Notes under the pieces: generated by a model
What the model was told of the DNA's origin: nothing
The model's database searches: none
The model's input: only the letters and a program-made list of their open reading frames with translations
Shown here: piece after piece, positions 44,170 through 62,309 of the stretch
Layout: the number at the start of each line of letters is the position of its first letter
Numbering within the stretch: position 1 is the first letter of the stretch
NCBI GenBank assembly: GCA_963833985.1
Contig: CAWIAD010000002.1
Coordinates: forward strand, 3,680,001-3,744,000
Length of the DNA: 64,000 nucleotides
Reading direction: 5' to 3'
DNA from: an uncultured Planctomycetaceae bacterium
GTDB lineage: Bacteria; Planctomycetota; Planctomycetia; Isosphaerales; Isosphaeraceae
Translations under genes and position numbers: made by a program

Positions 44170-44754
44170 TTGATTGGCCCACACGCGCGAGCCGTTCCGG
44201 AGGCGACCCGATTGGACTGGCATGCGACGACAATTCTGGCGGTCCGCAAGGCGGGCAAGGTTGCCATGGGAGGCGACGGGCAGGTGACGCTCGGCACCCA
44301 GGTGATGAAGGCCGACGCGGTCAAGGTCCGCAAGCTGCTGGATGGTCAGGTGCTGGTCGGCTTTGCGGGATCCGCGGCCGACGGCTTCGCCCTGCTGGAA
44401 CGATTCGAGGGCAAGCTCAAGGATCATCCCAACAACGTTCCGCGCACGGCGACCGAGCTGGCCAAGCTCTGGCGGACCGACCGGATGCTGCGCCGGCTGG
44501 AAGCAGTGCTCCTGGTGGTGGACTCGCGGCACAGTCTGCTGCTGAGCGGCTCTGGCGACGTGATCCAGCCCAGCGACGGCATCCTGGCGACAGGCTCCGG
44601 CGGAGGCTATGCGCTGGCGGCCGCCCGGGCACTGCTGAAGCATACGGGGCTCTCGGCCGCCGAGATCGTCCGCGAGTCACTGGCCATCGCCGGGGGAATC
44701 GACATCTATACCAACGGCAACCTGACGGTGGAGGAGCTGGAAAGCCTGAGTTGA
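44170..44754 (+). CDS. hslV: ATP-dependent protease subunit HslV
   Basis: [57 protein letters not shown]. Confidence 0.96.
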
Positions 44755-44861
44755 CGGGTGGGAGCCCGTTCTTCTCTCTCTATCGCTTCTGCCAGAGCCG
44801 GAGAGATCGCCGGAAGCTCCGCAGTATTCATGGGACACCCGATTGGTCTGGAGCCATTGCC

Positions 44862-46239
44862 GTGCATGAGTACAAACCCGAGTTGACTCCCCGGCAGATC
44901 GTCACCGAACTGGACCGCGATATCGTGGGCCAGGCCGACGCCAAGCGGGCCGTGGCCATTGCCCTGCGGAACAGGTGGCGCCGGCGCCAGTTACAGGAAG
45001 ATCTGCGCGCCCAGGTCACTCCCAAGAACATCCTCCTGATCGGGCCGACCGGTGTGGGCAAGACCGAGATCGCCCGCAGGCTGGCCATGCTCGTGGGGGC
45101 GCCGTTCGTCAAGACCGAGGCCACGAAGTACACCGAGGTCGGGTATTACGGCCGCGACGTCGAGAGCCTGATTCGCGACCTGGTCGAGGCGGCGATCCTG
45201 CTGGTGCGAACCGCCGAGCGGCAGACCGTTGAAGAGCAGGCGAAGCTGCGGGTCGAGCAGAAACTTCTGGACCTGCTGCTGCCGCCTGCACCCCATCAGC
45301 CGGCGAACTGGAGCGACACCGAAGCGGCCCAGGCCGATGAGGCCTCCGAGCGCCGCCAGCGCTCGCGAGAGAAGATGAAGAACCGGCTGCTCGCCGGCGA
45401 GCTCGAGGACCGCGACATCGAGGTTACCATCCCCGGCCGCACGGGTGCGCCGATCTCGATCATGGGCGCGGCCAACATGGAGCAGATGGAGATGGATCTC
45501 CAGAGCATGTTCGAGAAGATCATGCCGAAGCAGACGCAAACCCGCCGCCTGACGGTACGCGAGGCCCGGCCCATTTTGCTTCAGCAAGAGACCGATGCAC
45601 TCATCGACCCCGAGAAGATCAACCAGGCCGCCGTCCGTCTGACCGAGGATTCCGGGATCGTCTTCATCGACGAACTCGACAAGATCGCGGGTGACGAGGG
45701 TGCCGTACGGGGCCCGGACGTGTCGCGCCAGGGAGTGCAACGCGACCTGCTGCCCATCGTCGAAGGAACCACCGTGAACACCAAGTACGGACCCGTGAAG
45801 ACCGACCACGTCCTGTTCGTGGCCGCCGGGGCCTTTCATCGCTCCAAGCCTTCCGACCTGATGCCGGAGCTACAGGGACGGTTTCCGATCCGCGTCGAGA
45901 TGCACGACCTGGCGCGCGACGACTTCGCGCGGATCCTGCGCGAGCCCCGGGCATCGCTGCTGCGGCAATACGAGGCATTGCTGGGGGCCGAAGGCGTCAC
46001 GCTCCAGTTCACCAGCGCGGCCATCGAAGCCATGGCCGACCTGGCGTTCCTGGTCAACAGGACCACGCAGAACATCGGTGCACGCCGCCTGCACACCATT
46101 CTCGAGCGCGTTCTCGAAGACATCAGCTTCGAAAGCGCCCGACCGCCAGAACGAGACCATCGTGATCGATGAACCGCTCGTCCGCGAACGGCTCGAGACC
46201 CTCTCGAAGGACGAGGACCTGAGCCGGTACATCCTCTGA
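44862..46239 (+). CDS. hslU: ATP-dependent protease ATPase subunit HslU (frameshift near 46138)
   Basis: LTPRQIVTELD..IVGQ.DAKRAVAIALRNRWRR, GPTGVGKTEIARRLA, GVQRDLLP, NIGARRLHT; canonical C-terminus KDEDLSRYIL* in the shifted frame. Confidence 0.95.
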
Positions 46240-46457
46240 TCGCCCCGGCACACCCTCCACCGTCACCTCAAGGCGCCCGTTGAATCTGGAATCGTGTGTG
46301 CGCTCCGGACGCACTTGATTTCGCTGGTTTCAGAAATTACTATAACTGAAGCACTGCCGCGAGAACCGCTCCAGCAGTGAGACCATTTGTATGAACGTGA
46401 GCGAGGTTGCCACGTCTCATCCGCGTCTTCGGGGTAAACCCAGTGAAGACCACTTCT

Positions 46458-47669
46458 ATGCTGCGCAAGGTCACCAGAGACGGTCACGGTTATTCGGTCG
46501 TTGACCTCAATGACGTGAGGCATGTGCTGGCGGTCGCGGTCCCGCGCGGGGATGGCGACCTGAAAACGCAGGCACAGGAAGCGCTGCGGACAATCGAGGC
46601 CGTGCACGATGAAGAAGACACTCTCGGCTCGATCGTGCACCAGGCGGTGTTCGTTGCCGATCCGGAGCTGATTCCGTCCTGCCGCGCAATCATCCGCGAG
46701 TTTTACGGTGAGGACCTGCCTGCGACCTCGTTCGTGATCCAGCCTCCCTGCCAGGGGAAGTTGCTGGCCATCGAGGCGATCGGCGTGGGCCGGGGCAAGG
46801 CGGACGTCCGGATCGAGCGGTTCAGCGACCAGCTCGTCCGCGTCACTCACAACGCGCTCTCGTGGGTGCACTGCGCCAACATCACGCCGCGCGCGGGCGT
46901 CAGCGGCGTGTACAACCAGACCGTCAGTGTGCTCTCGCAACTCCGCGGGATGCTGGCGAAGCTCGACGTCGGGTTCGACCACATCATCCGCACCTGGTTC
47001 TACCTGGGTGACATTGTCGGCGACGAGGGAGATACCCAGCGCTACAAAGAGCTGAACCGCGCCCGCACTGCTTTCTTTGAGGGCGTGGAGTTCCTGGCCG
47101 GCTGCCAGCCCGGCCTGCCCGAACCGCTCTCTCCCTATCCGGCGAGCACGGGCATCGGCGCGCAGGGCAGGGGCCTCATGCTCGGCTGCATCGCGCTGGC
47201 GACCAATCGCCCCGAGATCGTGGCCATGCCGCTGGAGAACCCGAACCAGACCTCGGCTTTCCACTACGCATCCTCGTACAGCCCCAAGAGCCCCAAGTTC
47301 GCCCGGGCGCTGGCCCTGTCGTGCGGCAACTACGCCACCATTTTCATCTCCGGCACGGCCAGCATCGTGTCCTCGGAATCGCGATATCGGGACGACGTTG
47401 AGGCGCAGACGCGCCAGACGCTGGACAACATCGAGCTCCTGATCTCCGAAAACAACCTGAAGCGGCATGGCCTGCCGGGGCTGGGTGCCACGTTCGAGAA
47501 CATGGGGCTGGTGCGCATCTACATCAAGCGCCAGGAGGACTACGAGAAGACCCGCGCCGTCTGCCAGGCACGGCTGGGCGACGTGCCCACCATCTATGCC
47601 GTGGCCGATGTCTGCCGTCCCGAATTGCTGGTCGAGATCGAGGGGATGGCCTTCTCCCGGCGCGGTTGA
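46458..47669 (+). CDS. FkbO/Hyg5-family chorismatase-like protein (YjgF/Rid fold)
   Basis: RTWFY, YKELNRAR, YPASTGIG, ENPNQTSAFHY...SPKFARA, FISGTASIV, ADVCRPELLVEIEG. Confidence 0.75.
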   Translation: MLRKVTRDGHGYSVVDLNDVRHVLAVAVPRGDGDLKTQAQEALRTIEAVHDEEDTLGSIVHQAVFVADPELIPSCRAIIREFYGEDLPATSFVIQPPCQGKLLAIEAIGVGRGKADVRIERFSDQLVRVTHNALSWVHCANITPRAGVSGVYNQTVSVLSQLRGMLAKLDVGFDHIIRTWFYLGDIVGDEGDTQRYKELNRARTAFFEGVEFLAGCQPGLPEPLSPYPASTGIGAQGRGLMLGCIALATNRPEIVAMPLENPNQTSAFHYASSYSPKSPKFARALALSCGNYATIFISGTASIVSSESRYRDDVEAQTRQTLDNIELLISENNLKRHGLPGLGATFENMGLVRIYIKRQEDYEKTRAVCQARLGDVPTIYAVADVCRPELLVEIEGMAFSRRG

Positions 47670-47750
47670 GCGAACCCCTCCTGGAGTATCATGGATTCCG
47701 GGGGCATGTTCGATGCTCCCCTTGTGTCGACCCCGTGGAGCGTAGGCACG

Positions 47751-50700
47751 ATGGTTCGCCTGCATGACCGTGTTTGCCCCAGACGCTTCGGGTTGCTCGC
47801 CTTCGTCATCACCGTGCTGGCAGCGGGTGGTTGCCATGGGCCCGCCCCCGAAGCACCGGTGCCCGCACCGCCGGCCGCGCCAGCGCACGACCAGGCGGGC
47901 GTGACCGGCGCGACGGCCGGGGCCCTCTCGGCCTTCAACCGCGGAGCGGCCCAGCTGGAACAGTACCAGTACGCGGCTGCCGCGAAGACGCTCGAGGGAG
48001 TCGTCGCCTCGTCTCCGGGCTGGATCGCGGCCCGGTTCAACCTGGGCCTGGCGCTCCTCAACCTGCCCGAGACGCCCGACGCCCTGGACCGCGCCGAGGC
48101 TCAGTTCCAGAGCGTGCTCGCGTCTGAGCCCGAGAGTCCGTGGGCGCACTTCTGCCTGGGCGCTCTCTACCAGCACCGCGGAGAGTATGACCGGGCCGCC
48201 GATCATCTCGCGCGGGTCCATGCGGTCGATCCCCACGACCCCTTCGTGAGCTTTGAGTACGCCGAGTCGCTGCGCAAGCTGAATCGCGACCCCGAGGCGC
48301 TGCGCATCCTGGAACAGGTCGTACAGCGTGATCCGGGGTTCGTCTCGGCACTGTACAGCCTGGGCATGCTGTACAACCGGATGCACCAGCGCGAGAAGGC
48401 GGTTGCCGTCCTGAAGCGGTTTGGCGAGCTCAAGCCCCAGGAGCTGGCGGTCGGGTCTTACGGAGTGGTGGAACCTTATGCCGGCCGGGGCAAGTATTAC
48501 ACCGCACTGGGAGCTGACGGTCTGCCGGTTCCGGCCAGTGCCGGCACAGAGGCGCCCCGCGTGCTGTTCTCGCCTGAGATCCGCACGCTCGACGCACGGC
48601 TGGCGGCATGGACCTGGCACGGCGGCAAGGTGAGCGTCCCGGGCATCGCGGTGGGCGACGTCGATGGTGACGGCGACCAGGACCTGGTGATGGCGGGCAC
48701 CGGCTCCACGGGCCAGGCGCGCGTGCTGCTCAACGACGGCAAGGCGCATTTCCAGGGCGGACCGATCCTGGCGGAGCAGACCGTCGCACCCTGCCTGGGC
48801 GACATCGACAACGACGGCGATCTCGACCTCTGGCTGGGCCGGGAGGGGCAGGACCTGCTGCTTCTGGGTGACGGCAAAGGGACCTTCACCAGGGTTCCCG
48901 CACAGCCCGCAGCCGCCGCCGAATTCCTGACCACCTGTGCGCGCCTGCTCGACCTGGATAGTGACGGCGACCTCGACCTGCTGGCGATGCGCATCAAGGG
49001 CGGGTCGCTGCCCGCAGGGAACGAGCAGGTGCCCGCGGCCAGCCGCGTTTTCAACAACAACCTCGACGGCACCTTCGCGGACCTGGCGGCCAGCCATGGT
49101 CTGGCGCTGACTGGCCAGGCAATCTCGGCTGTCGTCCAAGACGACTTTGACAACGACCGCGACATCGACATGATCCTGCTTTCGCCCGCTGGCCGGCCAC
49201 TGGGATGGGAAAACTTCCGGATGGGCCAGTACCGCGTGCGGGACGCTCAGGAGACACAGCTTGAGATTGACCATCCCGTGGCAGCGACCACCGGGAACCT
49301 GTTCGGCACCGGCAACCGCGATCTGCTCGTCTTCGCCGGCAAGGAGCTGGCCCTGTTCCGGAATCGGGGCCTGTGGCGATTCGAGCGCGACGAGAGCTTC
49401 TCGGCAAGTCACGGGTCGCTGGGCGGGACGAGCGGTCAGTTCGTCGATATCGACAACGACGGCGACCTCGATCTGGTCATCGCCGATGCGCACCGCAGCG
49501 ACGGGACGCGCGGGCCAGCGCTCTTGCTCAATGACTGGCCAAACCGGCGGTTTCTCGATGCGGCCCGCGTCGATCCGGGGAACCTGCTCACGCAATGGAA
49601 GTGCGCTGGCCCCGCGCTGGTCGTGGCCGCCGATTTCGACGGCGATGGTAGACCGGACCTGCTCTTCGCGGCCATGGGCCAGGCGCTGTGGTCCTGCTCA
49701 ACGCCACGCGGGGGGGGAACTGGCTGGCACTCGATCTGGTCGGCCAGCGCGGGCAGGACCAGACCAGCCGTTCGCCGACCTCGGCCCTGGGCGCAAGGGT
49801 CGAGTTCCGTGCGGGACACGTCACGCAACAGCTCGTCGTGGGCACGCCATCGGGTGCCACCGCGCTGCCGCCCCTCCGCCTTCTGGCCGGGCTCGGGCCG
49901 CATCGCTCGGTGGACTGGCTGCGGATCCAGTGGCCCGATTCGCTCCTCCAGGCCGAGCTCGAGGTGGCGGGCAACCAGGTGCTGACGCTGCCGGAGGTGT
50001 GCCGCCGGACCAGCTCCTGCCCGCACCTCTTTGCCTGGGACGGCCACGGCTACGCATTCGTGTCCGACTTCGGCGGGGTCGGCGGGCTGGGTTACCGGAC
50101 AGGCCCGTCCTCCTTCGCTCGCCCCGATCCCACCGAGTACGTCACCCTGCCCGGGCTCGCGGTGCGCGACGGCGATTACGTCCTCCAGGTCGTCGAGCCG
50201 CTCGAGGAGGTCGTGTATCTCGACGAGTTGAAGCTGATTGCCGTGGATCATCCCCGGGGCACGCAAGTTCAACCCCGCGAGATGGCCGCCGTCGCAGCCG
50301 ATCCGCCGCTGTTCGAGCTTTACTGCTTCAGCCAGGTCGTCGCGCCGGTCCGCGCGGTGAACGACTGCGGTCAGGATGTCACGGCCGCGCTGGAGAAAAC
50401 CGATCGCGTCTACGCCAGCCCCGCGCTGCGCGACAGCCGCTTCACCGGGTTTGCCCGCGAGCATTTCGTGGAGCTGGATTTCGGGGATCGCCTGGGTGGG
50501 TTACCTCCGTGCGTGCACCCCGTGCTCTTGCTGGACGGCTGGGTTGAATATAGCACGTCCACGTCCAACTTTGCCGCGAGCCAGGCAGGGTTGCGGCTGA
50601 AGGCGCCGAGCGTCCAGGTCCTGCGTGGCGGCCGATGGGTCGAGCTGCGCACGAGGTCGGCTACCCCGCGGGGATTCGCCATACCATGACCATCGACCTT

Positions 50701-51272
50701 GCCGGCAAGCTCCGGCCTGGCGACGTCAAGCTGCGGATCACCAGCAACATGGATTTGTCGTGGGACCGGATCACCGTGGCGGCTCATCGCCCCGAGGCGG
50801 CCCCGAGACTGACTCAAGCACCCGCGCGCACGGCGGAGCTGCATTTCCTGGGCTATCCCCGCGAGTACTCGCCCGATGGGCGGCAGCCCAACCTGCTGGA
50901 TCATTCCAACGTCGATCCCTCCGACACATGGAGGCGCATGCCGGTGCCTACACCCGTTACGGCCAGGTCCGGCCCCTGCTGGAGTCCGCCGATGATCGAT
51001 TCGCGATCCTGGGCGCCGGCGACGAGGTCACGCTTTGCTTCCCGCAGAGCGCATTCGGTCCCATCCCGCCGGGCTGCACGCGTAGCTTCCTGCTCAAGAC
51101 CGATAGCTTCTGCAAGGACATGGATCTGTACACGGGCGGATCGGCAAGCGTGGACCCGCTGCCCTTCCATGCCATGAGCACTTACCCTTATGGTCCTGCC
51201 GAGCGGTACCCGGAGAGCGCGGAGTTTGTGCGCTATCGCCGGGAATACAACACGCGGATCATCGCCCCTTGA
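47751..51272 (+). CDS. Lipoprotein: TPR - FG-GAP repeats - ASPIC/UnbV - C-terminal domain (frameshifts near 49685, 50650, 50940)
   Basis: Lipobox VLAAGGC; TPRs; many DxDxDGDxD repeats; NWLALDLVG..ALGARVE..GLG..IQWPD; SSCPHLFAWDG; FCKDMDLYT..VDPLPFHAMSTYPY..YRREYNTR. Confidence 0.85.
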
Positions 51273-52488
51273 TGGAGCACGGCGAAAGGGCCGGTTCGGC
51301 CTGGACTGTCCGCCCGGATCGAATGGTGCCGAGCACCACGCGACGACTGTTGCTTCCCAGGCTGTCCCAGGCGATGACTCCGGTGACACCCTCGTAGGGG
51401 CTGACCAGGCGCAGGGCGTCGCCGATTCTGGAACGGTTCAACCCGGCCTTGCGGATCGCCGCGATGAGCAGCTTGACCGCATCGTACGTGTGTGCCGCGG
51501 CATAATCAGGCAGCGCGTGGTACCGCGTTTCGAAAGCAAGGCGGAACGAAGGCGGCAAGGCGTCTGGGTTGCACAATAACGGGAAGAGCACGCCGTCGGC
51601 GGCAGGGCCGGCCGTGGCCGCGAATCGCCTCCGGCCCATGGCGTGAGTGCCCAGGATCAATCCGGAAAAACCGGCCGTGCGCAGTTCCCGGACCAGCAGG
51701 CCCGATGTTTCCGCCCCGGCCACGAGTACCACCGCGGTCAGGCTTTCCGCCAGGACGGTGCGTACCGTCGCGCTCATGCCGGCCCTTTCCGGCGGCAAAA
51801 CGTGCACGAATGACGGAGCGGAATGCCGGCGTTTCAGTTCTCGATCAAGCTCGGTGACGAACCGCCTGGAATCATGATCGGGGGCTGACACAAAACCATA
51901 CTTTCGATCGTTGCAGCGCTCCAGCAGAACCGTCGCCAGCACCGGTGCCTGGAGGTGGTCGCCCGGAAGCACAGAGAACATCCAGGGAACATTCGCGACG
52001 TTCGCGCTGCGGTCGCTACTGGCAGGGCAGACCAGCGGCAGCCGCGCCTTGGCGACAACCTGCTCGGCCAGGTGCGCCGAGGGGCCGTCGCTGCCGCCCA
52101 CGACCGCCCACACGCGATCGCGGTACGCCATCCGGGCGATGAGACCGGCTCCGGTTTTCCAGGGCTCGGCGCTCCATGCGGCGCGGAATCGGAATGGTTT
52201 ACCGTGGTAGCCGCCCTGGGCGTTGGCCTCATCCACGGCCAGCACCGCGGCCTTCCAGAGATCGCCGCTCTCGGGGTCATCCGGATTGTTCGTGCCGAAA
52301 TAACCGAGCAGCACCTCTGACACGTCGGCAGTCGTCTCGCGCTCGCGCCCGGGTCCGGCGTAGGGCTGGGCCTGGAGCCGGAAGTCGCGAAACGGCTGGA
52401 CCGGCGAAGCCCGTGGAGCAAGCGACGTCTGAGCCTGTGCGGTGGCCGCGGACGCCAGAACAGCCAGGGTGAGCAACGGCCAGCGCAT
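51259..52488 (-). CDS. LivK/LivJ-like (periplasmic binding protein type 1) substrate-binding protein
   Basis: Signal peptide; LAVDEANAQGGY.G.PF, VWAVVG, NVPWMF, PDYAAAHTYDAV.LLI.AIRKAG, YEGVTGVI.WD. Confidence 0.85.
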   Translation of the reverse strand: MRWPLLTLAVLASAATAQAQTSLAPRASPVQPFRDFRLQAQPYAGPGRERETTADVSEVLLGYFGTNNPDDPESGDLWKAAVLAVDEANAQGGYHGKPFRFRAAWSAEPWKTGAGLIARMAYRDRVWAVVGGSDGPSAHLAEQVVAKARLPLVCPASSDRSANVANVPWMFSVLPGDHLQAPVLATVLLERCNDRKYGFVSAPDHDSRRFVTELDRELKRRHSAPSFVHVLPPERAGMSATVRTVLAESLTAVVLVAGAETSGLLVRELRTAGFSGLILGTHAMGRRRFAATAGPAADGVLFPLLCNPDALPPSFRLAFETRYHALPDYAAAHTYDAVKLLIAAIRKAGLNRSRIGDALRLVSPYEGVTGVIAWDSLGSNSRRVVLGTIRSGRTVQAEPALSPCSIKGR

Positions 52489-52500
52489 GCGGTTTTTGCC

Positions 52501-53945
52501 TCACTCCCTGGCGCCTGGGGCCGCGGACCTGGAGATCCCCATTTGCTCACGCGAAAGGTACTTCCAGCGGGCCTGCTCGCGCCGGGCCAGGAACACCTCG
52601 CCCACATCGTCGAGCACGGGGCTGAAGCGGATCTCGCCGGTCACTCCTTGCCATGGCTCCCTGCGGTAAGCGATCAGGTCGCGCACCTTCGCCCGGTTGA
52701 GGCCGGCCTGCTGGATGGCCCAGATCAGCATGTTCATGCCGTCATAAGCATGTGCGGCGTACGTTTCGGGCTCCTCATGGAACCGGCGCGGAAGCGGTTG
52801 CGGAATTCCAGGTACATCGGCGCGGTCCGCGTCGGGTCCCACGGGTAGGCGCACACGACGCCTTCGGCATTCGCGCCGGCGATCCGAACGAACTCGTCGG
52901 AGACGCAACGGTCGCACGCCACGAACGGCTGGCTCATTCCCGCTGCCCGCATCTGGTTGAGGATCCTGGCGCCGTCGGCGGCGTCGCCCCAGTGGATGAC
53001 CACGTCCAGGTTCGCGGCCCTGAGCCGCTCCAGCTCGAGGCTGAAGTCCTCTGCGCCGATCTTGTACGCCATCTCGATCTGGATGGGACGCTCGAGCCGC
53101 CGGCTGGCATCGCTGATCTCGCGCACGCCGAATCGCCCGTAACGATTGCTCGCCCGGATGATGCCCGCGCGGCGGTACCCGGCCTTGCGGTAGAGGTAGT
53201 CGACCAGGATGTAATTCATCTGGCGGTCGTCGCCGATGCAGCGGGCGACCCACGGAATATTGGTCTCGATGAACGTCGGGTCGGTGTCGCCGGTGTTCAT
53301 GATCAGGACCTCGCACTTGAGCGCGACCCGGATCGCGATGTGGCTGTTGGCGCCGTCGATGGTGCCGAGGATCGCCCAGACCTTGTCCTTGTAAACCTGC
53401 TTGATGATCTCGTTGGCGGATGAGCCCCAGAGTCCGTTGTCGTTGGAGACAACCAGCTCGAAGGGAAGCTTGCGCTTCCGATAGCCGCCCTGTGCATTGG
53501 CCTCCTCGATCGCCAGCTGGCTCCCCTGGTACATCCTTCTGCCCAGCACTTCCTCATGGCTCTTGCCGCCGGTGGCCGCCGACACGGTCGGGTAGAGCGG
53601 CCCCAGGAAGCCGATCTTCACCGTGGACACAGAGACGGGCTCGGGCACGGCCCGGCCTGCCCCGGTCGCTTCAAGCTGGGTCAGGAAATGGGTCCTGAAC
53701 GGCTCCACGTGGTGAAACGGCTCGAGCTCCTTGACCGTGTGCGCGTACTGCTGCTCGGTCTTCAGGGGAAGACGCGGAACCTGGTAGGCGTTCAGCGCGT
53801 TGATCTCCTCGAGGATCGCCCTGGCATCGGCGTCAACGGCCGGTCCCGTCTCCGGAGGCTTCCCCGGCGGAGAGGAACCCTGCCCGAACGCGGGCGGGAT
53901 CAGCGCAACAAAGATCGACACACAAACAACTCGAATGTATTTCAT
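52501..53945 (-). CDS. Second LivK-like substrate-binding protein (frameshift near 52785)
   Basis: MKYIRVVCVSIFVALIPPAFG signal; VKIGFLGP, LAIEEANAQGGY, VWAILGTIDG, NIPW; continues EEPETYAAHAYDGM..GVTGEIRFS. Confidence 0.85.
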
Positions 53946-53983
53946 ATTATTGACATTTCTTTTTAAAAAGACATGAGATGCTT

Positions 53984-55180
53984 CTAGTGATTGCCAGCAC
54001 GCCGGACTCCGGGGTAGTATCCGTCGCCCTTGCCCCATCCCAGCCCCCTGGCGGTGGCCACCCAGACGTCGTTGCCGTCGAAATCAAGATTGATCACGTA
54101 ATTGTGCGGCACGGTACGCTCGAGCTCGATGGTCTTGATTGGCTTTCCCCGGCGAAAGACCTTTGCCTCGCCGCGCAGAGTCTGGGGGTTCCGGGTGTAG
54201 GCGACATAGGTGTCGGAGAAGAAGTCGGCGACGACGCCCATCCCCTTGTCGGTGGCGAACCAACCTTCCGCCGAGCTGCGCCCCCGCACCGCGTTGGTGA
54301 AGTCGCTGGGGATGCCCGTCTCATTGGCATAGAACCCCCGCCAGTTGCGGCCGTCGTAGCGGCAGTTGCCGAAATACGTGGAGACCCAGAGCGCATCACC
54401 CACATGGCTGGCTCCGGTGACGATCACGTGGACAATACCGTCATCGCGGTACAGGTCGATCTCCATCTCGCCGTCGGGATCGATGTACTCCTTCCAGTGC
54501 GCGGTCTTCAGGTCGTACTCCAGGCAGCCGCTTCCCCACACGCCCAGGTAGACCTTCCCCTGGTCGACGCTCACTGAATAGTTCCAGATCTCCTCCATGG
54601 GGGCGTTCTTCTCGTTGAAGATCGCCCACTCGCGCGCCTTGGTGTTGTAGCGGCTGCACCCGGCGGTGGTTGCCGCCCAGACATTGTCGCCCTCCACGGC
54701 CACGCCGTAGACGACGTCGTTGACCAGCCCGCTGTTGAGCTGATGGAAATGGTCGAAACGCCCGCCACTGAACCGCGCCAGACCGCCGCCGAACAGCCCC
54801 AGCCAGACATCTCCGGTGTTGCGGTCCACGTCGATCGCGGTCACGGCCTGAAACGGCAGGCCGTCCTTCTCTTTCCAGCTCCGGATCTTGCCCGTTCGCT
54901 TGTCATAGCAGGCCAGACCGTCCTCGGTGCCGATCCACACTCTGGGCCCGTCCGCCTTGACGGCGAAGATGTGGTCGTTCGGCAGGCCGTCGGCCACCGT
55001 GAAGTGCTTCCACTGCGTGTACACGAAGGGCAGGGCGTCATCGGGCACATCCGCGCGCTGGCCGGCTGCCAGCAGCGGCGCCGGAGTGGGGGGTCTGGGC
55101 TCATCGCCGCCCAGCAAGCAGGGCAGCAGCGCACCCAGCAGGGCCGGTGCGAAGCCGGCGTTGGTTCGGGCTCTCTTCAT
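53984..55180 (-). CDS. Secreted beta-propeller with two-component-regulator propeller (Reg_prop-like) repeats
   Basis: FTVADGLPNDHIFAV..VWIGTEDGL, KDGLPFQAVTAI..VWLG..GGL, NSGLVNDVVYGV; no kinase or TM module. Confidence 0.8.
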   Translation of the reverse strand: MKRARTNAGFAPALLGALLPCLLGGDEPRPPTPAPLLAAGQRADVPDDALPFVYTQWKHFTVADGLPNDHIFAVKADGPRVWIGTEDGLACYDKRTGKIRSWKEKDGLPFQAVTAIDVDRNTGDVWLGLFGGGLARFSGGRFDHFHQLNSGLVNDVVYGVAVEGDNVWAATTAGCSRYNTKAREWAIFNEKNAPMEEIWNYSVSVDQGKVYLGVWGSGCLEYDLKTAHWKEYIDPDGEMEIDLYRDDGIVHVIVTGASHVGDALWVSTYFGNCRYDGRNWRGFYANETGIPSDFTNAVRGRSSAEGWFATDKGMGVVADFFSDTYVAYTRNPQTLRGEAKVFRRGKPIKTIELERTVPHNYVINLDFDGNDVWVATARGLGWGKGDGYYPGVRRAGNH

Positions 55181-55213: not shown

Positions 55214-58139
55214 TCAGAGCGTTTTGAGGTACTCGATCAGATCGTTGAGCTGGTCCTTGGTCATGTCGTTGGTGACGCCGTGCCGGTCGTCGGGGTTGTA
55301 CCGCGTCCAGATTTCCTCGAGAGTCTCGGCAATGCCGTTGTGGAGGTAGGGGGCCGAGTCGTAGATGTTGTTCAGGTGCGGCACGTCCACCCGGTCCTCG
55401 ACGTCCAGCGTCATGCGCGTGCCGACGTCGTGCTTTTCGCGGTCAGTATAAAGCGGTGGAAAATGGCACGAGGCGCACCGTTTCAGCTTGGGTATCGGCC
55501 GGCCGTCGGCCGTGACGGCCCGGTCGAAGAGCTGCTTGCCCCGGCGCTGGGCGGCTGTCAGCTCCACGCCCGGCGCGATGGCGGTTCGGCGGCCGGGCGA
55601 TGGTGCTGATGTAATGATCCACGGCCGCGAGCTCATCCGGAGTGAAGGGCTGGATGCGTGTGAAGTAGACCGACAGCCGTGGTCCGCACTGCCGTGACAG
55701 CGTGGGGTTGGTGCCAGCCCACTTGAAAGGGCCGGTGTCGAGAATGCCGCGCAGCGTGCGGTTGTCCACGGGGGCCAGCCCAATGCCGTCGGCCTCGATG
55801 TCGTAGGTCAATCCGTCCACGTGACCATCGGGGTGGCACGTATGGCAGGAGAGCTGGCGATGGAAGGAGATGCCGGCATTGTGGAAGAGCCGCTCGCCGC
55901 GCCGTGCCTCGGTGACGACCCGCGGACCGCCCAGGTGCACCGTACCGGCCGCTTTCCTGCCGGGGATGTCGATCACCGTCAACGCGTCGTCCAGGGCGCA
56001 GGCAACCCACGCCGTCTTGCCGTCGGGAGCAATCGCCAGGCCGCGCGGGTTGCGGCCCGTGGGGACCAGCGCCGTGACGAACCGCGTCGCCTGACCCAGA
56101 TGGTTGGGCAGCACGTCCCGGCGCTCGTCCTCGGTCGCGCCCTGGACCAGTCCGGTAAGCTGTGCGAGGTCGACGATGGCGACCTGGTCGGACCCGGCGC
56201 TGGTGACCAGGGCCAGGGCCCCATCGGGCGTGACGGCCACGTCGGTCGGATCCGGAAACGATTCTCCGGCCTGGTCCAGCAGCACCTGGTCCACCCGGCC
56301 GTCCTCCCAGACCAGGCCCAGGCCGCTGGTGACCGTCCAGCCCTGGAGCATCCGGGTCATCGGCACGAGGTTCTTGGTACGCAGCAGCGTGGCCAGCGCG
56401 AACCGGCCCGAGGGATGCCAGGCCACCCCCTGGAGCATGTTGGCATCGGGCACCACGAGCCGATCGTCGATCGTCGCGCGGCCGCTGTCGATGATGCTGA
56501 TCTCGGACTGCGACGACTCCCGAAACTTGACGAACCGCGACAGGGCGTTCGTGACCAGAATCCGGGCGCCGTCCGGCGAGATCGCCAGGGCCCAGGGGCT
56601 GCGGCTGGCGGAGAGGCGCTTCCGCTCCCGCAGCGAGGCGGCGTCGAACACCGAGATGTCGTCCGAGGAGGTGTTCAGCACGTAGATCGTCTTGCCGTCA
56701 CGGTCAGTGCACACCCCGTGCGGCTCATCGCCGACCGGCACGGTGGCGACCACGCGCGCCGCGGACGCGTCCACCACCGACAGGGTGTCATCCAGGCGGT
56801 TCGTGACGTAGGCCCTCTGGCCGTCGGGGCTGAACGCCAGGCCGGTCGGTTGACCCCCGACGACGATCTCCGCGCGCTTGCGGCGCTGCGCCGCGTCCAG
56901 GACGCAGACCGTCGCGGACGCCTCGCAGGCGACCCAGATCTCCTTGCCCCCCGGCCGGAACGCCACGTTGATGGGAGTCTTGTACACGACCCGCTCGGCC
57001 AGCGCCGGCGCTCCTGCCGGGTGGGCGATCAGCGGCATGGCCGCCTTGACATCGAACGGCTTGCCATGCGCCTGGCCATGGCAAGAGAGGCAGGCCGTTT
57101 CCCGGACCGCGACCATCCGCTCGGCGGCCACGGCCCCCTGCGTCCTGGCCGCCCGCTCGGTCGCGTGCGAGCTGCCAGGCCCATGGCACGACTCGCAGCC
57201 CACGCCTTCCAGGATCGAGTAGCTGTCGGCCGTTCCGGCCGCGGCCCGATGAAAGGCCGTGCTGTGGCATTTCAGGCAGGCCGCGCTGCGCTGGGGGTCG
57301 GCCGTGACGCCCGTCTGAACAGCCATCCGGGCGGCTTCCGGAGTGCCAAGCGAGGCGTAGGCACGAGCATGCGGCGTGATCTGCCAGCGGCTGAACGCAA
57401 AGCCCTTCTCGGCGGAATCATGGCACTCGGCACAGGCGCTCGAGCCGATGTAGCGGGCCTTTGCGTGGTTGTCGACCGGAGGGATCACGGCAGGCTCGCT
57501 GGTCTTTCGCTGCCCGTTCCCGGGTGTGGGATGAGCCAGTTCATGAAGCGCACGGGCAAGGTCAAACGGAACCGCCGGCGTCGCCGGGTGGGCCGCCGGC
57601 CGCGCCGGCGCCGCGGAGGCGCGGGCCAGCGACCTCGTGTGCGAGGGCTTCTCCTTGTGGCACTTCATGCAGTCGGCCCCGCTGGGGCTGGTCATGTGAA
57701 CCGGCGATTCGGCTCTCAGCGCGCCGCCAGCCGTCCAGGATTCGGCATGCTCGCTTCCCGGACCGTGGCATTTCTCGCACTGCACGCCGTTGCGGATGGA
57801 GAAGGTCTCGTCCTTTTCCCAGTTTTCGGCGTCGGCGGCCGTGGCATGGCAGCCGAGGCAGAGGGGCGACTTCTGCGGCTCGACGGGCACTCCGCTGATC
57901 GCGGCGATGGCATGCGCCTGCGGCGCGGCCAGGCTGGCGTACGCCCGCGCGTGCCGCGAGTGCTGCCAGATGGTCGTCTGGTGCCCCATCCCCGCGCCGT
58001 CGTGACAGGTCGCGCACACGCCGGCACCTACGTACACCGGACGCCGCGGCTGGGCCTGAGACGGCGAGCCCGCTAGGATCAGGATGGCGCCGAGCACCAG
58101 GCCGGAACGAGGCAACCGGGGTTCGCACGCCGCACTCAT
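55214..58139 (-). CDS. Fused octaheme cytochrome c - YVTN beta-propeller (HzsB-like) - diheme CCP-fold (HzsC-like) protein (frameshift near 55575)
   Basis: Eight CxxCH (CATCH, CLGCH, CEKCH, CMKCH, CAECH, CLKCH, CESCH, CLSCH), YVTNRLDDTLSVVD repeats, then CHTCH and CASCH with KHDVGT, YLHNG.A.TLEE, DRHGVT..QLNDLIEYLKTL. Confidence 0.88.
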
Positions 58140-58155
58140 GGCTTGATCACTCCGT

Positions 58156-59901
58156 TCAGCGGGCAGGTTGAACGATGCGCAGGAACTGGTTCGCCGCCAC
58201 GTCCTTGAGCGCAGTGGTCGTGCCGTCCGGCCAGCGCACCTCGACCTTGTCGGCCCTGACCGCCTTCCCCAGGCCGAAGTGCAGCCGTGCGTCCCCCTGT
58301 GAGAGATAGCCGCGCACCGGAATCAGGTCGTCCACCTGCACGAGCGATCCCGCCGTGACGACGACGCGAGCGCCGATGGCGTCGGTCCTGCCGTTGGCAA
58401 GCCGGGCCGACACGGTGAGCCAGTGGCCCTGGGTATTGCCGCCGTCGTTGCGCAACAGACGCGGCGAGTCGTTGAGGTTCACGACCAGCAGGTCGACGTC
58501 GCCGTCGTTATCGAAATCTCCCCAGGTGGCGCCCCGGCCGACGAACTTCTGGGAAAAGTAGGGCCCGGACCTTCTGGCCACGTCGACGAAATGGCCCTTG
58601 CCGTCATTGTGGGCCATCACCGCCCCCTCGCCGTACTCGTGGTGGGCGTCGCCGTTGGCGATGAACAGGTCGAGGTCGCCGTCGTTGTCGAAGTCCTGAA
58701 GCACCGCGCCCCAGCCGGTGTACTGGCCACAGATGAGCGCCAGCCCGGAGGCGTTGGTCTGGTCCTCGAAGAACTCGCCGCGGTTCGTGTGCAGGCATCC
58801 GTAACCCATGTCGGGAATGTAGAGGTCAAGCCGGCCGTCGCGGTTGATATCGCCGAAGACCGGCCCCATCGAGGAGACGCCCTGGCCACCCTCGCCAAAC
58901 GCCAGCCCGTAAACCAGTGCGTCGCTGGCGAACTTGCCATGACCCAGGTTGCGGTAGAACGCGCTCTCCATTGCGTCGTTGGCCACGTAGACGTCGAGCC
59001 GGCCCGTGTTCAGAAAGTCGGCCGCGGTGGCGCTCATGGCGCGGCCGTCCTTGCTGAAGACGCCGGCATCGCGGCTCACCTCGCGGAACGTGCCGTCGCC
59101 ATTGTTGCGCATCAGGTGGTCCGGCTGGCCGGGATAGCTCAAGGGCCCGGGATAGCCGGCGGCCGCGTAGTAGTTGCGGAACTTGCCGCCATCATATTTC
59201 AGGTACGTCGCCACGAACACGTCGAGCCTGCCGTCGCCGTCGTGGTCGAACCAGACTCCCGAGACGCTCCAGCCGGGCAGGTCCAGGCCCGACTGCTTCG
59301 AGACGTCCGTGAAGGTGCCGTTGCCGTTGTTGTGGTAGAGCACGTTCGGCCCGTAGTTCAACACATAGAGGTCGACATGACCGTCACCGTCGTAGTCGGC
59401 CGCCGAGCAGGCCACGCCGTAGCTTTCGCCTCCGCCCACGCCGGCCCGGTCGGTCACGTCGGTGAACGTGCCGTCATGGTTGTTGCGGTACAGGCGGTTG
59501 CTCAACTTCCCCCGGAGCCGACGGCCCGTGTTGTCGTTCACGTCGCTGCGATAGCGCCCGGAGAGCAGATAAAGATCCAGCCAGCCGTCGCCGTCGTAGT
59601 CGAAGAACATCGCACCGGCGCCGGTGCCCTCGACGATGTTGCTCAGCTCGGCATCACCGAAGCTGTGCTTGAAATGGATCCCGGCCTGCTCGGTGACGTC
59701 GGTGAATACCGGAACCGGCGGATCGTCGGCCAGCGCCGGCCGTGATCCCAGGACCGCCATCAGAAAGAGCAAAGGCAGGAGCATCCGTCCGCCACAATGA
59801 GCGAATTGCCATCCATCCGCTGTGTGGCTGCGGTGAAACGTGGCGCAGGCCCACGCGCTGCGGACCCGGGATTGTTGCTTGGCGTTCATTGGCGTGCTCA
59901 T
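58156..59901 (-). CDS. CRTAC1-family protein (FG-GAP repeats + ASPIC/UnbV)
   Basis: FTDVTEQAGI.F.H, multiple DYDGDG/DFDNDGD repeats, HWL.V..DAIGARV..GYLSQ.D.RLHFGLG..VEVRWPDG; start overlaps the upstream stop (ATGA). Confidence 0.92.
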   Translation of the reverse strand: MSTPMNAKQQSRVRSAWACATFHRSHTADGWQFAHCGGRMLLPLLFLMAVLGSRPALADDPPVPVFTDVTEQAGIHFKHSFGDAELSNIVEGTGAGAMFFDYDGDGWLDLYLLSGRYRSDVNDNTGRRLRGKLSNRLYRNNHDGTFTDVTDRAGVGGGESYGVACSAADYDGDGHVDLYVLNYGPNVLYHNNGNGTFTDVSKQSGLDLPGWSVSGVWFDHDGDGRLDVFVATYLKYDGGKFRNYYAAAGYPGPLSYPGQPDHLMRNNGDGTFREVSRDAGVFSKDGRAMSATAADFLNTGRLDVYVANDAMESAFYRNLGHGKFASDALVYGLAFGEGGQGVSSMGPVFGDINRDGRLDLYIPDMGYGCLHTNRGEFFEDQTNASGLALICGQYTGWGAVLQDFDNDGDLDLFIANGDAHHEYGEGAVMAHNDGKGHFVDVARRSGPYFSQKFVGRGATWGDFDNDGDVDLLVVNLNDSPRLLRNDGGNTQGHWLTVSARLANGRTDAIGARVVVTAGSLVQVDDLIPVRGYLSQGDARLHFGLGKAVRADKVEVRWPDGTTTALKDVAANQFLRIVQPAR

Positions 59902-61977
59902 GGCCCTCTGGCTGCCCTGGAGTCTTCGTACGGCCCGGCGGTCCGGCGTGCTCCGAGGTCGATCCAGCGCACGATGGTCCGCATTTCGGCGGCAGTAAGC
60001 GGCGCGCTCCTGCCCGCGGGGATCGGCCGGGCGGCCGTCGACCCGGCTGCACCGTCCCAGGGCCGGGACGTGTTCCGCCCCAGCAGATGCCAGACCAGAG
60101 GGCTGGTCCGCGCACGCCCGGGGTGGACGTACTTTCCCAGCCCGGAGGAGGGATCCGCGGCTGCATCGGGCGCGAGCAGGGCACGGTAGAGGTGATCAGG
60201 CGCGGCAGCCCGGTCCCCTTCCGCCGCGGCTGGAGGTGCCAGGTCAATCCCTGCCGCGGCCGAACCGCCCTGATGACAGGGCAGGCACCTGGTGCGAAGG
60301 ATGGGAACGACGTCGCGCGCAAAGTCCGTGAACCCCTCACCCTGGACGCCGATCGCCGTGGCCGCCGGCGCGTTCAGCGCGTCTGGTACCCGGTTGGGAG
60401 GAGTGCGCTCGGGGTCCTCGTGGCAGCCAATGCAGCCCTGTGCCTGGTGATTCCGCGCCCAGATCCAGCCGCAGCTCCGTACCGCGATGCCCTGCTCGTC
60501 GAGCAGTTGAAGCTGGATCGGCCGGCTTGCCGGTACGACCACCTGGAACGACCCGTCGCTCTGGATGGGCAGCTCGGTCAGGATCCGCCGCGCGGAGAGC
60601 TGGGGAAGCGGTCCCGATCCGTTTGTCGTGCAGGCGGCGCCGAGTCCGCTCGAGCCCTCAGGCGCCGGCAGTCCCTCAACCACGCGGAGAGTCTTCATCA
60701 TTCCGTGGGTTCGCCACATGCGGTCCGGCAGATCGCTCGTGAAGACGCTCATGCAGTAGAACCTGGCCAGCCGATCCGCGGGGTCGACCACGCTCGAGCG
60801 GCCATCGGGGCGCGGCCGGCTGAAGACGGCGCGGGGCTTGAGCTCGTGGAAGCGGGGATCATCGAGAATCAGCGCCCGCTGGCCGGTCGCCGGATCGAAG
60901 CGGTACAGGCCGAACGACGAGCCCGCGTCTCCGGAACGCCAGGCCACGACCAGCTGGCCGTCGGGAAACGCCGAGGGAGAGGAATACAGCCCGTCATGCG
61001 GCCCGGTGATCGTCCGGTACGTGTGCAGGGGACTGCGCAGCGACGCCCCCGCCAGCCGCCCCGCGCCGTCGCGGGCCGCAGGGTCAGCCTCGACCACGAC
61101 GAGGTTGCCGTCGGTGGTGATGCACGGCATCCGCCGCAGTCTCCCCGGGCTCCGCGGGACGAGGATGGCCCGATCCGATCCATCGGTGTTGACCGCCTCG
61201 AGGGCCAGCCGTCCGGCCACGCCGAGGTCGAGCGTCGCTCGATGCCACGACGCGTAAGCTATCCGCCCATCGGGCATGATCGCCGGGTCAAGGTCGCTCG
61301 AGAGATTGTAGGTGATGCGCTCTGGCAGCGAACCGCTGAGCTTGCAGGTGTACAGGCTGGTAACCGGGCCCCCGTCGCGCTCGTCGAGCTGGCCGCCTTG
61401 CGTCTTCACGAAGGCGATCTGCTCCCACGGCTCCGGCTGGCTGATCGTGAAGAAGCTCGACGTGTAAATGGGCGACTGGCAACGGCCGACATTGCGGGTG
61501 ACCTGCCGCTCCTTCAAGCTTTGCAGGTCCATCTCGTACACATCCCAGGCGTCTCCGGGCCGCTTCTGGCCCGCGAACAGGATCCGCCGTCCATCCGGGG
61601 AAACGTCCGCGTCGGTCGCGCTGTGGAACGACGGCGTGAGGACCCGCGTCGATCCGTCAGGGGCGAGCAAGACCAGCCGCGCGGGCGGATCCGGGCTGGA
61701 CACCGAGCCGGCGGACTGCGGCCAGTTCGGCTCTGGAGTCACCGGGACCTGCGTGAAGACCAGCGCGGGCCGGGCGGGCGAGTGGCGGCCGGCGGCCGCG
61801 GGGGGCTGAGCAGCGGCCCATTCAGTTCCGCAAAGCGCTGCCAGGCAAGCGAGGACCGCCCGGATGGAACGCCTGGCGCCGCGGGACCGGGCGCGGCACA
61901 CCGGGCCGACCTCCGGGAACGGCAGTGGCCGTGCCCCGGGGCCGGAGAACGCGTGGATGGCGGTAAGCTCCCTCATG
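59898..61977 (-). CDS. Hydrazine synthase alpha subunit (HzsA)-like diheme protein
   Basis: Propeller RVLTPSFHSA.D.DVSPDG..ILFAG, GRCQSPIY, RITYNLSSDLDP..MPDGRI, GLYSSP..PDG; middle domain LRVVEG..SDGSF..PA..PIQLQLLDEQG..W..GCIGCHE; C-terminal DFARDVVPIL..CLPCH, PGRAR.S.LVW, WIDLGA. Start uncertain. Confidence 0.85.
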
Positions 61978-62309
61978 GACGTTGAAACCATTACAGGGAT
62001 CGGCGACGGCTTCCGCGGCGCCGGCGGTCTTGGTGGCTGGCAACCATCGGCGCAGCCCAAACCCGTACTAGCGAAGCTTCATTGCTGCCTGGCCCGAGCC
62101 GGACATGCGCGGGCGGGCTTCACCGGGTCCGCCCTCGGGCACGGTCCGGGAGGCGCGGCACGATCGATTGATCTCCGCGGCTTCAGTCGGCGCTGCGGAG
62201 ATCAGCAGGGATCGTCTCGCGATCGCTTTATCCTACGACGCAACCGTCGAGAAATCGAGGGCCCACCCACCGTGAAGCAGGCAGTTCCTCTCCCGTGCTA
62301 CGGGCCCTT

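Follow-up and report, generated by a model that had tools for sequence, protein, structure and literature searches.

A clade I hydrazine-synthase-like decaheme fusion in an Isosphaeraceae genome, with a predicted connection between its octaheme part and its diheme domain

We describe a fusion gene within a 64,000-nucleotide stretch of DNA (hereafter the window; assembly GCA_963833985.1, contig CAWIAD010000002.1, positions 3,680,001 to 3,744,000) from an uncultured Planctomycetaceae bacterium of the family Isosphaeraceae. Its product joins two c554-type tetraheme modules to a propeller and a diheme domain that resemble the beta and gamma chains of hydrazine synthase (HZS), and it is almost certainly a member of the clade I hydrazine-synthase-like family of Hagglund et al. 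(2025, Genome Biol Evol, PMC12758564); homologues of all three HZS chains are encoded in one operon with a fixed gene order. In the reading that we prefer, and to which we give a probability of roughly 0.45, the protein is a fused beta-gamma-type subunit in which a periplasmic octaheme store, wired through its first tetraheme module, feeds a reductive site at heme gamma-I. The initial annotation of the window, made by a model from the sequence, had drawn attention to the fusion; novelty is not supported, as a ten-heme form with two c554 domains was already described in that paper, and a single extra copy adds little to a published family. What is new here is a model of the wiring, a set of minimal six-heme forms, a ligand swap in the c554 modules and a candidate accessory gene; the docking, the swap, the module choice of the six-heme forms and the link to a Rid/FkbO-fold protein were not found in the text of PMC12758564 or in part of its supplement. 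A literature search outside subscription journals turned up no paper in which a clade I protein had been assayed. Clade I relatives are widespread and bear on the question of how hydrazine synthase arose; natural six-heme minimal forms are useful for expression, and metagenome surveys can mistake hzs-like genes for anammox markers.

The open reading frame (ORF) of the fusion runs on the minus strand from 58139 to 55443, encodes 898 amino acids and holds nine CxxCH heme motifs, with first bases at 58016, 57860, 57779, 57671, 57434, 57278, 57197, 57092 and 55847. The tenth motif, CASCH at 55477, lies in the next frame, which stops at 55214. The start at 58139 is backed by a GGAG 10 nt 5′ of the ATG and by an N-terminal hydrophobic leader, and export to the periplasm is likely. 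Pfam family PF13435 matches twice (E 2e-31; residues ~33-205 and ~228-375) and scores 109 bits over the two stretches against a gathering score of 20.8, which places the modules in the c554 family; Nitrosomonas europaea c554 (1bvb) was likewise matched in sequence, module 2 at E 4e-9, and the NCBIfam equivalog for Nitrosomonas CycA scored 61 against a cut-off of 400. The propeller (residues ~385-727) matches HzsB (5c2v_B), blade-6 insertion included, at E 8e-37. An AlphaFold model of P0005, an intact homologue labelled Aquisphaera giovannonii that is 66% identical to the window fusion, reached a mean pLDDT of 80.5 and a pTM of 0.79, and its top fold match was HzsB (Z 48.1, rmsd 1.8, 340 of 352 residues aligned; runner-up Z 38.8). 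Whole-model fold searches are dominated by the propeller, and the c554 and diheme identities are assigned from sequence: comparison of the P0005 diheme part with HzsC (5c2v_C) gives E 2.7e-17, and the diheme profile finds HzsC at E 3.5e-27 and the next diheme enzyme at 2e-6. Folded by itself, the diheme domain gave a pLDDT of 39. All ten motifs stand in a single frame in 118 of 119 non-self homologues among the best 120 of 1813 hits, which rules out chance. This ten-heme architecture and the PF13435 resemblance of both modules had been proposed in the initial annotation and are confirmed by the motif count and the domain matches; its domain borders are correct to within ~15 codons.

The fusion lies in a same-strand run that comprises an hzsA-like gene, a CRTAC1/ASPIC gene, the fusion itself, a Reg_prop propeller and two periplasmic binding-fold proteins (SBP1 and SBP2; Table 1). 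Locus counts refer to the best 80 of 298 related genome stretches, which by their record titles belong to Planctomycetota, Acidobacteriota and one Anaerolineales bin. Where at least 6 kb was available on the side in question, the hzsA-like gene was found upstream in 51 of 52 cases and CRTAC1 in 52/52, and the propeller (53/54), SBP1 (54/54) and SBP2 (52/54) were found downstream. A genome of the window's own genus (G004) encodes P0005, with the same gene order, and PMC12758564 places that species in clade I. As described there, clade I proteins carry a pair of c554 domains, have as many as ten heme sites and show Cys165 and Trp144, and their genes stand in the order alpha, CRTAC1, beta-gamma and then two binding proteins. 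In the window, too, a fused beta-gamma chain bears two c554 domains at its N-terminus, which supply eight extra heme motifs; the protein keeps Cys165, has Trp for His144 and has lost the loop Glu; its genes follow in the order alpha-like, CRTAC1/FG-GAP, beta-gamma-like and two binding proteins, and its alpha-like partner has both heme motifs and lacks Tyr591 and His772. We see no family-level difference from clade I, the window copy being marked by a His at a variable c554 site and by a frameshift. With the beta and gamma chains of anammox HZS (Kuenenia 5c2v; fused in Scalindua) the fusion shares the propeller with its blade-6 insertion, the diheme domain, the third Cys, the distal His on gamma-II and an alpha-like partner gene. 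It differs from them in a propeller of ~24% identity, eight extra hemes, the family-wide loss of Asp168, His144 replaced by Trp and the loop Glu replaced by an invariant Arg, and an alpha-like chain without Tyr591 and His772. Other hzs-like fusions have been reported by Suarez et al. (2023, PMC10732223).

Table 1. Features of the window, with positions counted from its first base
Feature	Position	Strand	Remarks
Clade I HzsBC-like decaheme fusion gene	55214..58139	-	975 aa when the break is read through
c554-type tetraheme module 1 (predicted docking module)	57525..58043	-	candidate distal ligands H63, H131, H167, H203
c554-type tetraheme module 2	57015..57458	-	candidate distal ligands H257, H325, H358, H373
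HzsB-like seven-bladed propeller with blade-6 insertion	55959..56987	-	Arg at the HzsB loop Glu position
HzsC/CCP-like diheme domain (CCP, cytochrome c peroxidase)	55214..55937	-	gamma-I motif 55833-55847, gamma-II motif 55463-55477
Diheme-domain residues			W807, Q817, third Cys C818, distal His in HGVT
2-base deletion relative to relatives (frameshift)	55575..55578	-	likely assembly error
HzsA-like diheme subunit (PF18582)	59898..62060	-	5c2v_A E 4.9e-45; no Tyr after heme alpha-I
CRTAC1-type FG-GAP/ASPIC-UnbV protein	58156..59901	-	
Reg_prop beta-propeller	53984..55180	-	N-terminal hydrophobic leader
Periplasmic binding-fold protein 1 (SBP1)	52501..54038	-	frameshift near 52787
Periplasmic binding-fold protein 2 (SBP2)	51259..52488	-	
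TPR + FG-GAP + ASPIC protein	47691..51272	+	three frame changes; accessory, 15-17/80 loci
Rid/FkbO-fold protein	46407..47669	+	accessory, tracks with the operon

Complex modelling suggests that the c554 modules are probably wired to the diheme domain through module 1. When the octaheme part of P0005 (36-377) was folded against its beta-gamma part (378-974) alongside three controls, the docking score was 0.83 against 0.00 for the best control; the docking mark is reached by 116 of 157 solved pairs and by 2 of 215 mismatched ones. The runs share at least 96% of their contacts, with a partner pLDDT of at least 81. All confident contacts join module 1 to the diheme domain and module 2 makes none, and residue 101, next to the second heme motif of module 1 (102-106), contacts residues 895-896, just past the gamma-II motif (888-892). 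Onward from there, a conserved Trp is predicted to bridge gamma-II and gamma-I, as in diheme peroxidases. Searches of PDB sequences found no single chain spanning the octaheme and beta-gamma parts. Six-heme relatives, of which there are 22 among 120 shorter hits, agree with module 1 as the docking unit in that most keep it: 15 of the 22 retain a module-1-type unit behind the leader, and the other seven carry a module-2-type unit, five of them appearing truncated by eye and one (P0167) being ambiguous. In a seven-motif protein (P0216) module 1 is whole and just a remnant of module 2 is left, so that it is apparently intermediate in module loss. The initial annotation had proposed an electron reservoir hard-wired to the catalytic heme. 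Modelling, and modelling only, supports a wire from the c554 modules to the diheme domain, docked through module 1 and not through module 2. Its idea that the fusion serves as a Rosetta stone for anammox fails: Kuenenia encodes no c554 homologue and its tetraheme Kuste2854 exchanges electrons with HZS (PMC8388095), so the identity of the anammox donor cannot be read from the fusion.

Four candidate distal ligands are present in each c554 module, and one ligand site is occupied by either His or Met. Across 118 sequences, Met fills this site of module 1 in 101 and His in 15, while 2 sequences have neither (exactly one of them in 116/118); in module 2, 100 sequences have only Met, 17 only His and 1 has both (exactly one in 117/118). 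The window copy has His, not Tyr or Met, at the variable site. Just after heme motif 4 there is an additional conserved His (H173 in 118/118, H357 in 114/118). Cytochrome c554 has one open five-coordinate heme. The candidate ligands, the additional His and the His/Met swap together suggest that the eight wire hemes may all be six-coordinate, with no counterpart of that open heme. In other respects the modules resemble N. europaea c554 (1bvb) in the spacing of the four heme motifs and in the His of the HA[RK]A motif, and are unlike it in being duplicated and fused and in having the extra His and the swap site.

Conservation in the diheme domain is given here over the same number of sequences in P0005 numbering. 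N792, K805, W806, Q816, C817, R820, L821 and T826 are invariant (118/118) and H953 is kept in 117. By our own alignment and Fig. S7 of PMC12758564, C817, W806 and H953 correspond to Cys165, His144 and His332 of HzsC, and C818 and W807 of the window are the clade I Cys at Cys165 and Trp at His144; equivalents of Cys165, His332 and Arg143/Lys are retained. The bis-His character of gamma-II is found in the family, with His at the His332 position in 117/118 and the HG column labelled H332 in the same figure. The acid at gamma-I is not: Asp168, which lies 4 Å from the gamma-I iron in HZS (bioRxiv 10.1101/2023.01.22.525020), is Leu in our profile and in Fig. S7 and Arg in one pairwise alignment, and never an acid. 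We rejected an 'Asp168 to Arg charge swap' since in both the profile and Fig. S7 position 168 falls on Leu and the counterpart of the Arg is a conserved Arg of HzsC. The surrounding motif, [QE]CG[PA]RL, occurs in 80/80 ORFs from the loci, the invariant R595 stands where the HzsB loop has its first Glu, and the gamma-I pocket and blade-6 loop are nearly invariant. No column between 816 and 830 has a conserved His or Met that might serve as sixth ligand in the 118 sequences, which fits an open catalytic site at gamma-I. In the alpha-like chains the 8 residues that follow heme alpha-I never include a Tyr (0/59 proteins). Their distal alpha-II position holds Met in 35/60; the alpha-like protein of the window has Ile there, along with the motifs CIGCH and CLPCH and an Arg at the His772 position. 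These chains also carry a near-invariant Met-x-Cys (M311 and C313, each 57/60) and an acidic E-D-x-E after heme alpha-I; going by sequence, both are possible ligand or active-site residues.

Taken together, a plausible scheme is one in which electrons would enter the octaheme part from a donor encoded elsewhere, be stored on the eight c554-type hemes and be handed over via module 1 to the bis-His gamma-II, from which they would pass through the Trp to gamma-I, the likely catalytic heme. Gamma-I, with its three Cys links, a distal Gln and no acid, would then carry out a several-electron reduction of a small oxygenated substrate, whose product would travel on to the HzsA-like partner and its heme, following the two-site design of HZS. 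We lean towards a reductive direction by analogy with the potentials of HZS itself, where gamma-II (~-310 mV) feeds gamma-I (~0 mV) (bioRxiv 10.1101/2023.01.22.525020). The likeliest substrate would be an N-O compound, although this is a tentative and rather doubtful choice. The multi-electron chemistry proposed in the initial annotation is an inference that would have to operate in a gamma-I pocket without Asp168, and the enzyme's product is very likely not hydrazine, given the loss of gamma Asp168 and alpha Tyr591.

Several observations weigh against this scheme. The docking run used a perfectly paired alignment of our own making and unrelated controls, with both chains taken from one natural polypeptide, all of which favours a pass; the models are heme-free, heme proximity being read from residue contacts; and interface conservation is a weak signal (0.71 in module 1 against 0.59 for the module-2 equivalents, n=18, and 0.75 for the rest of module 1). 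One six-heme form with a clear leader (P0212) carries a module-2-type unit. AlphaFold confidence falls below 50 over residues 794-828, the distal side of gamma-I. Sequences and loci are related to one another and their counts overstate independence. Among ORFs of at least 120 aa in the 80 loci, no quinol dehydrogenase, membrane redox partner or other donor gene recurs. Neither NarG/NxrA nor NirK scored over the cut-off in the host genome, the NrfA family gave weak partial hits only, and A. giovannonii appears in Table 1 of PMC7716859 as a strict aerobe, so that genome and congener do not point to nitrogen respiration. Lastly, the Trp and Gln of the gamma-I site (W806 and Q816) align with those of the CCPs 1zzh and 9qdt and fit peroxide chemistry equally well.

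This last point underlies a different reading of the diheme domain, as a peroxide enzyme of the diheme peroxidase/MauG type in which the octaheme part would reduce H2O2 or a high-valent gamma-I would oxidise the alpha-like partner or a small molecule. We consider it unlikely, though not negligible. The invariance of Trp806, Gln816 and Asn792 (118/118), a strict aerobe among the carriers and two heme-copper oxidases in the host are all compatible with it, and the fold, bridging Trp and distal Gln are shared with diheme CCPs, MauG and MbnH. However, CCP and MauG carry a distal catalytic Glu, and in the fusion family Asp or Glu occurs in at most 5/118 sequences at any column from 816 to 830, so that this residue looks absent, in a region where the CCP alignments end before the site and the model has a pLDDT below 50. 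The distal ligand of the second heme is Met in CCP and Tyr in MauG, whereas here it is a His as in HzsC. The third Cys link, the fused propeller and the octaheme part are further departures from those enzymes, HzsC outscores any CCP by ~20 orders of magnitude, and the NCBIfam MauG and MbnH models scored 25 against 444 and 24 against 363.

It is less likely still that the complex is non-catalytic, a periplasmic electron store or redox sensor whose diheme domain would serve solely as a relay, with the propellers and binding-fold proteins building a scaffold or a sensing assembly. The loss of the gamma-I acid would suit such a role, as would an operon neighbourhood with two binding-fold proteins and several propellers and, across the 80 loci, no recurring permease or membrane redox partner, but the near-invariant gamma-I pocket and blade-6 loop speak against it, as does the missing sixth-ligand His/Met at 816-830, which fits an open catalytic site.

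Returning to the octaheme-fed, reductive gamma-I, one can extend it to a self-contained two-site tunnel enzyme of ancestral type in soil and sediment heterotrophs. Here, the module-1-docked octaheme battery would drive N-O reduction at gamma-I, the alpha-like heme would join the reactive product with an amine or amide (forming an N-N or N-C bond), and the Rid/FkbO-fold protein would clear imine by-products. We regard this extended version as improbable; were it true, a cultured aerobe carrying the whole set would make a pure-culture test of the precursor chemistry of hydrazine synthase possible.

The break in the window copy is very probably an assembly error, with the gene intact in vivo. Four congeneric loci carry two extra bases at ~55576, and the frame beyond the break is 76-88% identical to six intact homologues and shows no decay. 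Among the best 120 hits just two have nine motifs, namely the window's own truncated protein and P0087. Over ~11 kb there are six frameshifts in four genes: the fusion, binding protein 1 and hslU have one each and the TPR-ASPIC gene has three. Since these include a housekeeping gene and the relatives are intact, we infer assembly indel errors, as the initial annotation had suspected for the break near 55575. That the gene is a true pseudogene cut off before heme gamma-II is accordingly very unlikely, even though the deletion is present in the assembly and a congener (G002) likewise has the gene in two pieces, broken at another position. The hslU gene (window 44751-46236, plus strand) is frameshifted near 46135, its usual-looking C-terminus running on in another frame.

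The least credible alternative is that a bacterium outside the anammox group has a true hydrazine synthase: three subunit homologues in one operon, the retention of Cys165 and His332 and a like proposal by Suarez et al. (2023, PMC10732223) for other hzs-like Phycisphaerae speak for it, but the alpha-I Tyr is absent (0/59 alpha-like proteins), Asp168 and the loop Glu are lost, the host genome has one HAO-family gene only (446-aa frame), an anammox function of clade I was rejected by Hagglund et al. (PMC12758564), and the NCBIfam HZS equivalogs (NF052342, NF052340, NF052341, NF052339) scored far below cut-off, at 175 against 1250 (beta-gamma), 154 against 560 and 73.5 against 625 for P0005 and at 179 against 800 for the window's alpha-like protein.

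Beyond the conserved run, the Rid/FkbO-fold gene is a candidate accessory gene that travels with the operon. It is present in 21/80 loci and in 17/37 of those of at least 20 kb, at positions that differ by lineage, and the 10-Mb host genome has 1-3 matches, of which the best adjoins the operon. Within a set of 41 related genomes, many of them incomplete and kin rather than independent, the protein was found in 8/8 genomes with a close fusion match (one partial, one split) as against 4/33 others. Genes of this fold and of varied length adjoin the operon at differing positions in Acidobacteriota, Pirellulales/Phycisphaerae and Isosphaeraceae (L069:6179-6658 and L028:3-875, besides the window copy at 46407-47669 on the plus strand). 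A nitrilase/amidase-like neighbour, present in 11/80 loci, was rejected as a specific partner: it occurs in 23/41 genomes, many of them fusion-free, and lies elsewhere in the host genome. Genes of this family, common in the class, stand beside TPR-containing genes (L033:16856-17872, minus strand; G000:C1:309372-310391).

The host genome encodes, besides its two heme-copper oxidases, cytochrome c assembly genes. On the lifestyle of A. giovannonii the sources contradict each other, PMC12758564 calling it an obligate anaerobe and Table 1 of PMC7716859 listing it as strictly aerobic. The short HAO-family octaheme frame lies ~135 kb from the operon (G000:C2:3873455-3874792, plus strand). A second hzsA-like and beta-gamma-like pair (G000:C1:1685561-1689639, minus strand) is without c554 modules and the third Cys and has its beta-gamma gene upstream; it probably represents clade IV as defined in PMC12758564. 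A third propeller-diheme fusion is found at G000:C2:3182362-3184143 (plus strand), with no alpha-like Pfam match nearby.

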